Virus record (IMG/VR): IMGVR_UViG_3300029305_004519 | Location: 77,541-135,466 of that record | Strand: one strand, 5' to 3' | Origin: a virus | DNA: 57,926 nucleotides | In this document: piece by piece, positions 1,916 through 40,000 of the stretch | Numbering within the stretch: position 1 is the stretch's first letter | How the letters are laid out: each line of letters opens with the position of its first letter | Program-made: the position numbers and the translations under genes | Notes under the pieces: model-generated | Told to the model about the DNA's origin: nothing | Databases searched by the model: none | What the model saw: only the letters and a program-made list of their open reading frames with translations

Positions 1916-2073
1916 TTTACTTTTACCTCTTTGAGTTTATAAACTTGTACTTTTTCCCAATAGCGTTGATAATAATGAACGCAATTTTTCATTGTCTCTT
2001 TGGGGCAATCAATAACAATATTGCGACTGACAGAGCCGTCGATATTGCTGACGATTAAAAGCCATTTAATCAT
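1912..2073 (-). CDS. Hypothetical 53-aa protein (MIKWLLIVSNIDGS...)
   Basis: GGAGGA Shine-Dalgarno. ATGA overlaps at both ends. Below the ORF-track cutoff. Confidence 0.4.
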   Translation of the reverse strand: MIKWLLIVSNIDGSVSRNIVIDCPKETMKNCVHYYQRYWEKVQVYKLKEVKVK

Positions 2074-2327
2074 TTTCTTTTATCCTCCCTATATCCAAAA
2101 TATCTGCGACCTTGGTAGTATTCGATATTGATATGCCCCATTCGTGCAAGATTGCGAAGTGCATTTTCCATGGCACTAATAGTGACATATCCCTCTCCAT
2201 CTTCATCGTGAGGAACGCGAGCATAGATTTCCTCTTTATGAAGATAGTATTCCTTGTTTTCTGCGAGAATGTTCTCTACCCAATAAAACGCATCTCTCGG
2301 TCTTTCAAGATATTCTTTTCTAATCAT
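2070..2327 (-). CDS. Hypothetical protein (85 aa; MIRKEYLERPRD...)
   Basis: Part of ORF 2070..2378, using the internal Met with a GAGAGG Shine-Dalgarno. The longer ORF would overlap the tRNA-like element. Confidence 0.5.
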   Translation of the reverse strand: MIRKEYLERPRDAFYWVENILAENKEYYLHKEEIYARVPHDEDGEGYVTISAMENALRNLARMGHINIEYYQGRRYFGYREDKRK

Positions 2328-2350
2328 GGTTATTACCTCTCTTTTTTTAG

Positions 2351-2418
2351 TGGGCGTGAGGGGAATCGAACCCCTCATTTAACTTTCACTCATAGCAGAG
2401 TGTTTTTCCTGCTCGCCC
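2351..2418 (-). tRNA. tRNA-like element, possibly a tRNA gene; the cloverleaf could not be completed by eye
   Basis: The minus-strand RNA has a canonical T-arm AGGGG-UUCGAUU-CCCCU and a 7-bp acceptor stem GGGCGAG/CACGCCC with one mismatch, plus discriminator A. It is 68 nt long. A CUA triplet is present centrally, but no canonical anticodon stem could be found. It lies immediately downstream of a consensus promoter as the first element of an operon. Confidence 0.45.
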
Positions 2419-2431
2419 TTACTGCTCTTAT

Positions 2432-2460
2432 ATTATACCACATTATGTAGGTTTTGTCAA
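2432..2460 (-). promoter_or_regulatory. Consensus sigma-70-type promoter (TTGACA-17-TATAAT) driving the tRNA-like element and downstream small genes
   Basis: Plus tgtcaa at 2455-2460 and attata at 2432-2437 with an exact 17-bp spacer. Confidence 0.75.
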
Positions 2461-5220: not shown

Positions 5221-5559
5221 TTATACCCCCAAACTGATTGCTATTGCTTTATCAACTTCCCACATTTGTTTACTATTTGCGATGCCGACAAAGGTTTTTA
5301 GTCTGCGCTTGTCAAGGGTTCGCATTTGCTCACATTCGACCATGCTCTCCTTGCATAAACCGCAAGAGGTATCGAGTAATACCTGTGTTGGCAGACGGAA
5401 TTTATGCGTGCGACTGGTGATGGCCGCCGCAATGACGATAGGCGCGCGTCTGTTGCCTATATCATTAGATACAATCAACACTGGGCGCAAACCGCCTTGC
5501 TCACTGCCGACTACTGGTGAAAGGTCTGCGTAATAAATTTGTCCTCTTTTGATTTCCAT
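5221..5559 (-). CDS. mazF: MazF/PemK/EndoA-family toxin endoribonuclease (112 aa)
   Basis: RGQIYYADLSPVVGSEQGGLRPVLIVSNDIGNRRAPIVIAAAITS...ECEQMRTLDKRRL closely parallels Bacillus EndoA/NdoA and E. coli MazF motifs. AAGGGGG Shine-Dalgarno. Confidence 0.85.
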   Translation of the reverse strand: MEIKRGQIYYADLSPVVGSEQGGLRPVLIVSNDIGNRRAPIVIAAAITSRTHKFRLPTQVLLDTSCGLCKESMVECEQMRTLDKRRLKTFVGIANSKQMWEVDKAIAISLGV

Positions 5560-14853: not shown

Positions 14854-15219
14854 GTGAGAGATATAAAAGCAAGCCGAGGCGAAATTAAAATTTGTGATAT
14901 TTTAACTGAAGCTGGCGTCTCTTTTACTGAAGAATATTCATTTCCAGATCTTGTGGGACATACAAAAACGCCATTGCGTTTTGATTTCGCAATTTTAGAT
15001 GATAATGGAGAAGTTGACTTTTTAGTTGAGTTTAATGGAATACAACATTATCAACCTAAATCTAAATTTGGTGGCGTCGCAGGGTTGCGACAATAGCAGT
15101 ACTATGATATGTTAAAAAGAGAATATTGTAAGAAGCATAATATTCCCTTGGTTATTATTCCTTATTATGACGAAGGAAGAATTAACTACGACTATATTTT
15201 TACAGCTGCGGGATATTGA
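14854..15219 (+). CDS. DUF559/Vsr-like PD-(D/E)xK endonuclease-fold protein (121 codons; GTG start, uncertain), possibly a free-standing homing endonuclease
   Basis: RFDFAILDDNGEVDFLVEFNGIQHY matches the DUF559 core. One in-frame TAG. Ends at TGA 15217-15219. Located between terL and the portal gene. Confidence 0.5.
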
Positions 15220-15261
15220 CAAGATCAAAATTTTTGAATATAATATTTAAAGAAAGAAGAG

Positions 15262-24025: not shown

Positions 24026-24773
24026 TTTATTACTTCTCTCCGGGGCAAATATTCCTTTTATTGAGGGCACAGTAACGATTCATTAGCCTACAATATATGA
24101 AATCTCTTTAATTGGTGAAGAAAAATTATTCACAGGATGTGAATTACTGAAATTTTCAAAAGACATATTAAATTCTGAGGACAAAAATAGATTAGCCAAT
24201 TATAATGATTTTAATATATTAATGTCAATTATGAATGATAATAGTGGATCAATGATATTTAATATATCTTGTGCCAAATAGGTGTTAGATTTAATCTTCC
24301 CTTTGTATACTGTAGTTATTGCACCAACAGCTATTTTACTCTTGGATTGCAATGATCAAACTAAATTATGTGGCTAGATTAATGAAAAAAATTTTGCTGC
24401 ATTTAAGAATGTTATTATTTAGGTGTTTTGTTTAAAGAAAGCTTCTGCAACGCCTGAATATAATGTTCAATCAGAATTAGCGAAACAAATTGCTGATAAG
24501 TTTAAGAAAAGACAACAATAGCTTGCCGCATAGTCTTCAAATTCTAAGCGAGTCGCAATTTTTAGTAGATATATTTCGATATTAACAGTAGGCGAAAATA
24601 AAGATATGAATTCTTTTATGTAGTACACTGTTTATCAATTATTTGACGAGTTCTAGCGATATTAGTTAAAAGTAGGTCATGATACCTATATAAAAGCTAA
24701 ACTTGCTGGAGCAACAGACTTAGAAGAACCGGCAGATTGGATGAAAGATATCCATGATGCTAGTTCTAATTAA
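24018..24773 (+). CDS. Hypothetical protein (251 codons, about 13 TAG)
   Basis: ATGAATGA overlap with the upstream stop. Frame 0 is open to TAA 24771-24773 apart from TAG. Confidence 0.4.
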
Positions 24774-37017: not shown

Positions 37018-40000
37018 ATGTCAAATAAGACTCCACAAAATGCTCAAGCTATGGTGCGAGATTGGCTAACTGCCATGCAGATCATTGCAGATGGATCAAC
37101 AAGTCCTGGAGATACTACTGTTATTGCGACAGTTATAGCCACTCCCTCAGAGGGATCGAATGAATACACGATAGATTTGGGCGGTGATAATAATACGCGC
37201 ACAGCTCTTGGTCAGAGAGGATTGTATGCAAAAGATAGTCGAGTATATGCCACATGTCCAGCAGACTAGAGTCTTAAAGCGGTGATTTTATGCTCTGCTA
37301 CTAGCACAAGCGGCGCCAGCGAGGTAATTTTACCAATAGATAGATATGCTATAATTTATGAATTAGAAACTATGAATAATAGGCCAGAGGATGATTATAA
37401 GCCGCAACAATGGGCAGGTAGCTCAACACCAGCCACACATTTAAAAATTTCTGCAACTTTAAATCCTACTGATGCGAGTCTAGATTATTATGTACCTTTT
37501 ACGATTAACTTTACAGATAACACCGAACTTGAATTGGTAGATGCTGTAGGCAGTGGCGCTGTAGAAGGATATCCTTTTGTAGCAGGGCCTCATGATATAG
37601 AAGTTTATGTTGATATTAAAGATAAAACTATTAGTAATATTATTCAAGGTAGGACATCTAATACAAGCATCGATAATGTTAAATATACTACTCTATATGA
37701 TCGAACTTTGTTATCACAGAATAAATTAATTATTTATTCTTATGAAGATTCTAGTAAACAATTATATGCAGTTCCTATTCATAAAAATAAAAATGATGAT
37801 AATTTAACTTATAATTATTCATGGCAAAAAGAATAGAAGACATATGAAGATCTTGGTACAAGTAACCCTATAGAGGCGGGCGCGCTAGTTCATGCAAAAG
37901 TTGGCTTTAAATGCACTGCGACCTGCACCAGTGAAGGCCATGAAGATGAATAGTTAACTGGTGAAATTGTTTTAGATGGAACTGCATATACTGTATCAGT
38001 GGCTGTAACAAGAGATAGTGGAGAGAATATAGATAATTATAATTTATCAGCATCTATTAATCCACCTCTTCCAGAAACAGTTTCTCCAATTTATCAATGG
38101 TATAAAGATGATATAGAATTTGAGGATGAAGGTAATCTTCCAAATAGAGTAATTAATGGCGTTACAGAGATTAGCGGAAGCGCTCATTATATTTGCATTA
38201 TCGAAGATAATAATGGAGAGTATTATGGAGAAGATGGTGTAACCTTATAGCAGATTATTTGGAGTGTTTAGAGCTCTACTGTTTATTATACAACGACTTC
38301 AAGTAATTCGAAACCAGATCTTCCTTTAGATTCTTCAGACTGGAGTACCAATGTTCCAAATGATTACGGAGAAGAGAACCCCTATTTATGGTCTTATTAG
38401 GAAACGATTTATACAGACGGTAATAGAACTAAAACGATCCGAACTGAGGTTTCTTTATAGTCTTTCTTTGTATCTTCTTCTTATAAAATGGAATTAACTA
38501 ATCCTTTTGATATGATTCCTGTTGATGCAGATAGTGTTTTGGCATCTTCTTCTGCGTTAAATGAAGCTTGGACTGAGATTAAGATTTATAGAGGCTCAGA
38601 GTTGCTTAATCCAGAGTCCATTAATATCGTTGATACGTTGTTGCCATCCTATGAGAGTGAAGAGACTTTAAATGGGTTGTATTTAGAGGATAAAACTTAT
38701 AATGAATTTACAGGAACTTATTCATTTGGTCTTAGCGCAGATAATAAAATTATTTTTAAAGTCAACTCATGGTCTTGGGAAGATAATTATACAGAAGAAA
38801 AAGATAGTGTATCATTTAATTTCTTTTATTATGAAAATGATGATGAATTAGCAACTGGCACTTTTACAATAAAAACCAATATTGCGACTGTTGATTATTC
38901 GTTGATGCTTTCATAGCGCATTGTTAATATTTCAAATTTACCATCAGAAGATAATCAATTTATCACTGTTAATTCAAAGAAAATTTGGGGTAATCGCTCT
39001 TAGATAAATGGCAATGGAGCTCGAATCCGATACAATTGGAATAAAGGTTTTGATAGCGACGACTATGCAGAGATTTCCGATATGAGTGACGCCCGACGAA
39101 TTAGCTATGCGGATAAAGTTACTGATGTATCTAATAAATTATATATTTGGCTAGAAGCACAAACTGGTCCCGATGATGAAAAGGAAGAGCCTATTTGGCA
39201 AGTCTGGGATTAGGACATTGTCTCTTTTATTGAAGATGGCGAAAACTCTTATTCAATGAGTTTAAATAATGACAGTGATGTTATTGCGATCAGCGCAGCT
39301 AGCGGCAAGGTTCTTGGTTCATTACCTACTATTTCTGTATAGACTTTTTACGGAGAAACTGTCGTAGATACGGGAACTGTTACAATTGATCCGATCAATT
39401 GTACACTTGACGAAGAAGAAGAAGAAGAAGTAGACAGAAGAACCTGTACATTACAAAGCATCTCTGCAGGAGAAACCTCTGGTAGTGTTACATTTACTTG
39501 GGATCCAGGGGAAAGCGCTCCATCTCTTACAAAAACTTTCACTTTTAATGTAGTAACATCATCTGTAGATTATGATTTAGTAATTCCTCAAACTACATTT
39601 AATACCTCAAGCAGCGTACAAGTAGCAGTATAGGTTAAGCGTACAAGAGAGGGCCAAGCAACTGACATTATTGCGCCTAATGGCGATTCTGATGTTGTAG
39701 TGCAGTATTAGAAGCAGAATGCTACAGGGTGGGAGACTTTAACCAACAGTAATCTTACAATTACTGATACTTCTGCCCCTTATACTTTTAGAATTATTAA
39801 GAAGAAAGATAAGGCAACTGATCCTGATTTTGTATGGGATGAAGAAACTATTGAATTTGTACGAGATGGTATTGATAAACCAATAAATACATGGCTTCGT
39901 GAATTTCCTTGGAGCACATGGGAGTATCACATAATTAAGAATCCTACTAGCTCTTGGGACTATTATAAAAAAGGCGAACATGAAGAATCCTATGATAATT

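Follow-up and report, generated by a model that had tools for sequence, protein, structure and literature searches.

What does a transfer RNA (tRNA)-like element do as the first product of an early operon in a gut phage that reads TAG as a sense codon? The question is posed by 68 nucleotides (nt) at positions 2351-2418, minus strand, of a 57,926-nt stretch of virus DNA (IMG/VR record IMGVR_UViG_3300029305_004519, positions 77,541 to 135,466 of that record), which we refer to as the window. The element stands directly ahead of a gene for a protein of 85 amino acids (aa). An original prediction made from the letters of this DNA had described it as a tRNA-like first product of a consensus early promoter on the non-recoded strand, a description that our analysis supports, and had put it forward as a candidate amber suppressor whose early expression would act as a temporal switch for TAG-rich late genes. 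We find that the element almost certainly neither reads codons nor serves as the TAG suppressor. The reading that we put in its place, and to which we give about an even chance, is that of a tRNA mimic without decoding function that forms part of an early phage mRNA leader and is probably excised by RNase P and RNase Z.

Predicted fold of the element

Read on the minus strand from 2418 to 2351, the element (GGGCGAGCAGGAAAAACACTCTGCTATGAGTGAAAGTTAAATGAGGGGTTCGATTCCCCTCACGCCCA) folds with a minimum free energy (MFE) of -27.4 kcal/mol, z = -3.8 against dinucleotide shuffles. Its delimitation as one module of 68 nt draws on the sequence, on the fold, on identical copies in other samples and on a diverged variant in the contig L041. 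The acceptor and the T-arm have pair probabilities of 0.96-1.0. In the acceptor, the 5′ strand GGGCG (element nt 1-5, positions 2414-2418) pairs with positions 2352-2356 and is the same in L041 over the part that is readable there, while the 3′ strand CGCCC (2356-2352) is followed by a discriminator A (2351) and then by CUA, not CCA. The T-arm (2357-2377) directly abuts the 3′ strand of the acceptor, and no CCA is encoded. It is made of a 7-base pair (bp) stem, UGAGGGG/CCCCUCA, and the T-loop UUCGAUU (2370-2364), which fits the consensus of tRNA and transfer-messenger RNA (tmRNA); the fold, a local Rfam match and covariation with L041 all support it. Its core, GGGG-UUCGAUU-CCCC (2374-2360), had been recognized in the original prediction as a canonical T-arm, and our fold both confirms it and extends its stem to 7 bp (2377-2357). 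The acceptor stem of 7 bp proposed there stands only in part: the stem is present, but it has five Watson-Crick pairs (GGGCG/CGCCC), and seven are reached only with an A6.A62 mismatch and a T-stem cut to 5 bp. A double change at pair 43-61 in L041 favors the 5 + 7 division. The resulting 12 continuous stacked pairs (5 + 7; paired run nt 56-67) equal in length the 7 + 5 acceptor/T helix of a tRNA. Single strands flank this helix on both sides, with 7-8 nt of leader before it and the 3′ trailer CUAAAA behind it. The whole matches the form of the t-elements of plant mitochondria and of RNase P and RNase Z substrates, namely a coaxial helix of ~12 bp with a T-loop and free flanks inside a longer transcript.

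In place of a D-arm, an anticodon arm and a variable loop, the element has a 36-nt middle region (2378-2413) with two alternative hairpins. The first, AGCAGG/UCUGCU (2413-2394), belongs to a fold of -27.6 kcal/mol and has a probability of ~0.65, and the second, CACUC-UGCUAU-GAGUG (2402-2387), which holds a CUA triplet, belongs to the fold of -27.4 kcal/mol and has a probability of ~0.34. The two are mutually exclusive and near-isoenergetic. The middle region offers no sequence variation by which to choose between them, nt 4-33 being the same in L041.

TAG recoding and the case for a suppressor

The TAG-rich late genes invoked in the original prediction are real. Across the 17 late open reading frames (ORFs) of the plus strand, 190 in-frame TAGs occur in 11,303 codons (16.8 per 1000); all late ORFs terminate in TAA or TGA, and the base after TAG is unbiased. 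The 27 early genes of the minus strand contain no internal TAG. With TAG taken as sense, the plus-strand content in ORFs of at least 100 codons approximately doubles, from 27.6 to 56.3 kb, and the longest ORF reaches 2,901 codons with 62 in-frame TAGs. Residues aligned to TAG (X) in divergent relatives are mixed, and no single amino acid emerges.

The element itself has little to offer for decoding these codons. Its CUA lies centrally (nt 24-26) and outside a clean 7-nt loop, as had been noted from the letters; it sits in the 6-nt loop UGCUAU of the second middle hairpin (8 nt if the closing pair opens), with a G on its 5′ side (no U33) and a U on its 3′ side (no purine 37). No D-arm is present in the MFE or suboptimal folds, and neither middle hairpin contains a 7-nt anticodon loop with U33-CUA-R37. 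That no canonical D-arm or anticodon arm could be folded by eye is therefore borne out by the fold, and also by ARAGORN, which finds 0 tRNA or tmRNA genes in the whole window and none on the element strand at the -ps, -ps80, mitochondrial (D-armless) or tmRNA (-m) settings. The sole relaxed ARAGORN call is a spurious match on the opposite strand in the loosest mode. With Rfam 15, no family passes its gathering threshold, and a scan of the whole window at E ≤ 0.5 is empty. At E ≤ 10 over 301 nt, the sole tRNA-clan match is a 17-nt T-arm against tmRNA at 11.6 bits (gathering 47), the permuted tmRNA model reaches 10.8 bits, and no residual likeness to D or anticodon arms is seen in the Rfam tRNA-clan models. 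A canonical tRNA, or tRNA-Sup(CUA), is rejected on structure together with ARAGORN and Rfam. The covariance models that had been suggested as a check thus score the element below threshold, and the proposal of an amber suppressor acting as a temporal switch is not upheld, given negative detectors, no decoding arm and six closest relatives that do without the element.

An unconventional, D-armless amber suppressor, showing CUA from the CACUC-UGCUAU-GAGUG hairpin to decode late TAG, deserves separate consideration. The phage sequence could be extended by ~11.5 kb past the left end of the window (L054, L131), and in the resulting ~69 kb (window 1-57926 + L054 + L131) ARAGORN finds no canonical tRNA, though TAG makes up 1.7% of late codons; neither the window nor L054 has a match to any Rfam family. 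An early product of a strong promoter that, in one of its two folds of nearly equal energy, has CUA in a hairpin loop might fill this gap, and recoded phages without suppressor genes have been noted in the literature (PMC10607447). However, the loop has the wrong size at 6 or 8 nt, with the wrong neighbors of CUA and no D-arm to accompany it, every tRNA detector fails, and the competing fold abolishes the CUA hairpin. G1-C and A73 are also a poor fit to tRNA-Gln identity. The closest relatives that lack the element are known from contigs that hold early genes only, and the unseen rest of the genome may hold normal suppressor tRNAs, as in phAss-1. The phage of the window is distantly related to phAss-1 and to large Bacillus siphoviruses (prohead protease 38-42% identity). 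For phAss-1, 36 tRNA genes are described, three of them tRNA-Sup(CTA) (PMC10607447), and the fetched part of its record contains 35 tRNA features, one of them Sup-CTA, among small genes on one strand. We consider a suppressor of this unconventional kind extremely unlikely. With the element dropped as the answer to TAG decoding, ~69 kb with 1.7% TAG codons and no tRNA gene amount to a case of unexplained decoding, and the annotation of recoded phages can mistake such elements for degenerate tRNAs or candidate suppressors.

Two contig regions add an observation on the recoding itself. L027 (1-5104) and L064 (1-3842) share the 85-aa gene (75-79% identity), and their neighboring opposite-strand genes are intact in the standard code (331-559 aa). 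The window counterparts of these neighbor genes hold 7-9 in-frame TAGs each. On this comparison of sequences, TAG recoding may differ between phages that share early-region modules.

The element as an insertion in an early leader

The perfect TTGACA-17-TATAAT promoter reported ahead of the element is confirmed on the minus strand at 2460-2432. Its -35 box, TTGACA, lies at 2460-2455 and is followed by a 17-nt spacer and an extended -10, TGgTATAAT, at 2440-2432 (TG 2440-2439, TATAAT 2437-2432), for 12 of 12 consensus positions plus TG. Chance does not account for the promoter, since the window contains 10 perfect TTGACA-N16-18-TATAAT sites where 0.08 would be expected. Eight of the 10 lie on the minus strand between 255 and 6889, in the early region, most of them with the extended -10 TG. 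The sequence after the -10 box, up to the element, is ATAAGAGCAGTAA. Transcription start was placed at A2426 or G2425 from sigma-70 spacing (6-7 nt past the -10), and the element begins 13 nt past the -10 box and ~7 nt past this likely start. Between the element and the ATG of the first gene (2327) stands CTAAAAAAAGAGAGGTAATAACC.

To see where else the element occurs, contigs fetched for homologues of the 85-aa protein served as the comparison set. Contigs of the window lineage carry identical copies in eight or more further samples from JGI and ENA (carriers include JGI 3300018493, 3300018494, 3300022661, 3300024303 and 3300032167 and ENA ERZ27248370), and L041, whose downstream protein is 89% identical and whose contig begins inside the element, has the diverged copy. 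At the same place in the 5′ untranslated region (5′UTR), L038, L039, L040, L042, L044 and L060 (protein 85-91% identical) do not have the element, and neither does any of the more distant relatives fetched (L027-L037, L061-L068). Its distribution is patchy among close relatives, and the 85-aa gene occurs both with and without it. In relatives, the homologous gene is preceded by the same promoter. Where the element is missing, the leader runs as ...TATAATATAAG-TGTG-AAAGAGAGG directly into the ribosome-binding site (RBS), which is kept along with its spacing. In the window, an 82-nt segment (2426-2345, comprising the element, 8 nt before it and 6 nt after it) replaces 4 nt of a conserved 25-nt 5′UTR. 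The 8 nt before the element (2419-2426) thus belong to the segment that relatives do without.

A segment of ~80 nt that is sharply present or absent in otherwise conserved surroundings is what an integration-site or mobile-element scar could look like, be it an attP-type fragment with the 3′ end of a host tRNA gene or the trace left by a small mobile element, and tRNA gene fragments are common at integration sites (PMC9897764). However, the pattern RRRGGGTTCRATTCCCYYYACGCCCA (T-arm + 3′ acceptor, both variants) has 0 matches among 185,579 species, scanned with one genome per bacterial or archaeal species, and an attP or tRNA-gene fragment was rejected on this count. The complementary 5′ acceptor strand is present as well, so the element is more than a 3′ fragment. 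The site lies inside the 5′UTR, only 13 nt past the -10 box, and no target-site duplication or terminal repeats are visible. Among the neighboring small ORFs there is no integrase match in Pfam or PHROG, although no systematic window-wide search for an integrase was made. Identity between the window and L041 is 87.7% in the element, 82.6% in the adjacent UTR and 84.9% in the gene. Since the similarity of the element is about that of its flanks, the two copies appear to have diverged along with them, which speaks for vertical descent rather than a recent insertion. A scar is, in our judgment, very unlikely.

The differences between the two copies are informative in their placement. Six of the eight form three doubly compensated T-stem pairs, one falls in the T-loop, one in a linker and none in the 5′ 30 nt. 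The T-stem of L041 reads UAGAGGG/CCCUCUA against UGAGGGG/CCCCUCA in the window, with three pairs altered on both sides and pairing kept, and its T-loop reads UUCAAUU, where G57 has changed to A and the purine is retained. When eight substitutions were placed at random in a simulation, all pairs were kept with at least three double changes at P ~1e-6. The absence of changes in the 5′ 30 nt has a probability of ~0.007 at the background divergence of ~15%. In a control with slid partners, pairing falls to 43-60% of cells, from 100% in register; a shuffle control gave 57/500, a figure that is uninformative with two sequences. The compensated T-stem pairs and the unchanged 5′ 30 nt lead us to conclude that selection, both purifying and compensatory, acts on the helix, the T-loop and the 5′ half, and that the element is not a dead relic.

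These results also bear on the possibility that the element is a decaying remnant of a phage tRNA gene, with no function or with residual processing. The distant relative phAss-1 intersperses tRNAs with small ORFs on one strand (36 genome-wide, PMC10607447), and both the middle of the element, which has no convincing arm, and its dispensability in six close relatives would suit decay. Yet the short UTR of those relatives is intact and without a tRNA, which looks like gain, not decay. The three compensated pairs of the T-stem and the 30 nt of the 5′ half, which stay unchanged at ~15% divergence, argue further against a remnant, as does the lack of any D-arm or anticodon-arm similarity in the tRNA-clan models of Rfam. 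A comparison of the middle region with 176 phage tRNAs also gave no convincing ancestry. We hold a remnant to be improbable.

Searches in wider collections returned no further members of the insertion. The exact 26-mer has 0 matches in IMG/VR, the inner 18-mer has one chance match there, in a coding region, and the inner 21-mer has one chance match in JGI metagenomes. Against INPHARED, blastn gives T-arm matches to ordinary tRNAs only, and the 85-aa protein has no relatives in IMG/VR.

Possible processing and function

The acceptor/T half of a tRNA is recognized by RNase P, RNase Z, the CCA-adding enzyme, T-loop modification enzymes and EF-Tu, and CCA-less precursors are RNase Z substrates in Firmicutes. 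The element keeps precisely the half that is read by the processing machinery, with the acceptor/T helix, the T-loop, G1-C and the discriminator A, and with no CCA. RNase P is known to cut tRNA-like RNAs that are not tRNAs, including phage M3 RNA, the C4 RNA of P1 and P7, and an acceptor + T stem-loop alone (PMC11143913). In plant mitochondria, tRNA-like t-elements set mRNA ends via RNase P and RNase Z (PMC1920247).

By analogy, one can sketch how a non-decoding mimic would be handled. A transcript from the strong early promoter would be cut by host RNase P before G2418, which would remove the predicted 5′ leader AGCAGUAA (2419-2426, minus strand, from the likely start to G+1). RNase Z would cut after A2351 and free a tRNA-like small RNA of ~68 nt, to which the CCA-adding enzyme could add a CCA tail. 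The operon mRNA would be left starting at C2350, 23 nt upstream of the AUG and 9 nt before a strong Shine-Dalgarno (SD) sequence. Its predicted 5′ end after RNase Z is the first base of the 23-nt spacer CUAAAAAAAGAGAGGUAAUAACC (2328-2350, minus strand), which carries the RBS GAGAGG at 2341-2336. The useful product might be the small RNA, as a decoy or ligand for a tRNA-binding factor, or else the processed mRNA end; either is possible.

Several points weigh against a processed mimic and keep our estimate of it in check. Six close relatives do without the element, which makes it dispensable for the operon, and it could be nearly neutral. Processing by RNase P and RNase Z is something we infer from shape only. 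The T-loop has no canonical D-loop partner, with only the GG at nt 10-11 able to serve as one, and this lack may weaken RNase P recognition. The comparison involves two variants only, and the interior fold and any tertiary contact of the T-loop are tentative. Because six close relatives are without it, the element behaves like an accessory ('moron'-type) module in these genomes, not like a core regulator.

The position of the element would also suit a cis-acting leader that stays on the mRNA, as a 5′ stabilizer against exonucleolytic decay or as a modulator of translation or transcription, with the tRNA likeness incidental or serving a binding protein in cis. Its start is ~7 nt from the predicted 5′ end, the AUG follows 23 nt behind it, and its fold is very stable. 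The host is probably a Firmicute, judging from the strong SD sites and the nearest phage relatives, and in Firmicutes 5′-proximal structures stabilize mRNAs. Nevertheless, any hairpin would stabilize an mRNA, whereas here the T-loop, the 12-bp stack and the discriminator A are kept through compensatory change, which points to tRNA-specific factors. For a tRNA-shaped RNA with free flanks, moreover, cleavage by RNase P and RNase Z is to be expected (PMC11143913). Retention in cis is thus unlikely in our view.

Comparison with known tRNA-like RNAs

The closest phage counterparts in layout are the C4 RNA of P1 and P7 and the M3 RNA of phi80, which like the element are promoter-proximal small RNAs with a tRNA-like acceptor helix in the leader of their own operon. 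C4 is not known to have a canonical T-loop. C4 pairs with the downstream RBS region, whereas the element has no complementarity beyond chance: the longest complement of its middle region in window transcripts is 10 nt, against 9-14 in shuffles. A C4-like antisense regulator was rejected, as no target beyond chance and no Rfam C4 match were found. Release by RNase P is established for C4 (PMC11143913), and plant mitochondrial t-elements, the MALAT1 mascRNA and tRNA punctuation are likewise cases of non-decoding modules within longer transcripts that are cut by RNase P and RNase Z (PMC1920247). The element resembles t-elements further in standing directly 5′ of a coding region. Unlike the element in its phage early leader, however, t-elements and mascRNA are organellar or eukaryotic, and the cleavage of the element is predicted only.

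In construction, the element recalls the tRNA-like domain of tmRNA, with an acceptor and T-arm, the same T-loop, no D-stem and a replaced anticodon arm. It differs from tmRNA in having no G3.U70 alanine identity, no tag ORF and no pseudoknots, and in its length of 68 versus ~360 nt. A tmRNA or mini-tmRNA was rejected, given that pair 3 is G-C, that ARAGORN -m is negative and that the Rfam score is 11.6 bits against a threshold of 47. The internal mini-frame AUG-AGU-GAA-AGU-UAA was dismissed as a mini-tmRNA tag, having no RBS. Non-decoding use of a tRNA shape is also described for the 3′ tRNA-like structures of plant RNA viruses, for bacterial YrlA Y-RNAs and for the 'tRNA-Other' of B. cereus (PMC4201824, PMC3399842). 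These three differ in build, with pseudoknotted 3′ ends, Ro-binding helices and complete cloverleaves, respectively, and the element has no Rfam match to the plant viral, YrlA or tRNA-Other type.

Other tRNA-like modules in phages

In pattern scans of IMG/VR, phage contigs frequently proved to carry acceptor/T-arm modules that have no anticodon arm and are ARAGORN-negative; among T-arm/acceptor pattern loci, 9 of 26 are of this anticodon-arm-less kind. Two groups resemble the window element in having an acceptor/T stack of ~11-12 bp and no anticodon arm, in being ARAGORN-negative and intergenic, and in lying just upstream of an RBS or ATG. The window element differs from both in its longer, unrelated middle of 36 nt.

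The first group is a minihelix family of 40-50 nt, with a 5-bp stem, the linker AAYGGUUUY-N, a 6-bp T-arm and the loop UUCGAUU, which we call the AAYGGUUUY family. One narrow pattern yielded 64 loci in IMG/VR (L070-L130, L008, L011, L014), always intergenic and in many cases preceded by a terminator and followed by a promoter or RBS/ATG. The pairs covary strongly, 8 of 11 showing double changes. The family corresponds to no Rfam family, with only weak local matches resembling the tRNA-like domain of tmRNA. A covariance model of the family found two full copies in Mycobacterium phage Send513 (JF704112), at ~39483-39529 and 39869-39915 (L069 12-58 and 398-444), one upstream of each of the consecutive genes gp49 and gp50, an arrangement that suggests mRNA punctuation. 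The window element is not a member: it has a local match of 23.5 bits to positions 18-38 of 47 (the T-arm) of model R1, whereas members reach 36 over the full length. In one contig with a minihelix, L089 (IMG/VR 3300026311_000001), there is also a match to the type-P3 twister ribozyme at 1991-2061, minus strand (48.1 bits against a gathering threshold of 39.9).

The second group, family A (GGGCGGCCAGGA...GCCCACUAAAAA), is 62 nt long, stands 16 nt upstream of an ATG and is represented by L137, L145, L147, L153, L156 and L161. It has GGGCGnnCAGGA at its 5′ end and GCCCACUAAAAA at its 3′ end in common with the window element, a likeness in sequence that is no more than suggestive of homology between the two. 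The scans also brought up a family B, which has a D-arm and a truncated anticodon loop and is called by ARAGORN as 'tRNA-???' with a 2-nt anticodon (L142, L146, L149, L150, L152, L154, L158, L160, L162). In L140, a GAAA tetraloop takes the place of the anticodon loop, and further non-decoding elements occur in L139, L141, L143, L148, L151, L155 and L157. GGGCG...CGCCCA acceptor ends are common to all of these, families A and B included.

The window element does conform to what is seen more widely, tRNA mimics without decoding function that are placed just ahead of phage genes. Processing and mimic elements of tRNA-like shape are already known, and neither the window element nor the related families found here has an Rfam match. 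A broader proposal, tentative and on balance doubtful, is that the element is one case of a widespread, undescribed phage class of non-decoding tRNA mimics that would be cut by RNase P and RNase Z, CCA-tailed and active in trans on tRNA-binding machinery. If this were true, such mimics could be decoys for defense toxins or nucleases that recognize the acceptor end or elbow of tRNA, or could modulate translation at the switch to TAG-recoded late genes. Whether as RNase P/Z 'punctuation' or as decoys in trans, they would represent an overlooked layer of phage expression or counter-defense. The analysis documents a selected tRNA mimic in an early phage leader and ties it to many unannotated elements that tRNA finders and Rfam miss.

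Surroundings of the element in the early region

The first gene of the operon (2070-2327, minus strand, ATG at 2327) encodes the 85-aa protein, which has 55 homologues at 49-91% identity, no match in Pfam or PHROG and no assigned function. An N-terminal extension from the in-frame ATG at 2378, which would give a 102-aa ORF reaching into the element, was rejected, as this ATG is gone in L041 and a stop intervenes. All 55 homologues begin with MIRKE, MIKKE or MISK, and none is extended N-terminally. On the other strand, the reverse complement of the element contains two weak terminator-like hairpins (plus 2356-2378 and 2387-2402) with T-rich tracts following. They are probably a by-product, A-rich linkers seen in mirror image, as no gene on the plus strand runs in from the left.

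The eight perfect minus-strand promoters between 255 and 6889 (TTGACA-17-TATAAT) drive short early operons of small standard-code genes, and the other two perfect sites lie at 15216-15244 (+) and 24199-24228 (-). One of the eight stands immediately upstream of the operon described here (2636-2608, minus) and is followed by ~140 nt without an ORF, ending in AGTTGCAAATATTTTTT before the next -35. This untranslated stretch of 141 nt (within 2461-2636, minus) has no detectable structure (z = 0.03). In the relatives L032 and L044, the motif AGTTGCAAAT is repeated upstream of the -35, and GAACAGAAA repeats are also present. The region 2461-2636 could be an operator or UP-element region, or could encode an unstructured small RNA. 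Farther along the minus strand, the early gene at 5221-5559 encodes a homologue of MazF/PemK-family toxins (Pfam PF02452, E = 4.7e-31). The early regions of relatives also carry PemK-family genes, some of them directly after the homologue of the 85-aa gene.

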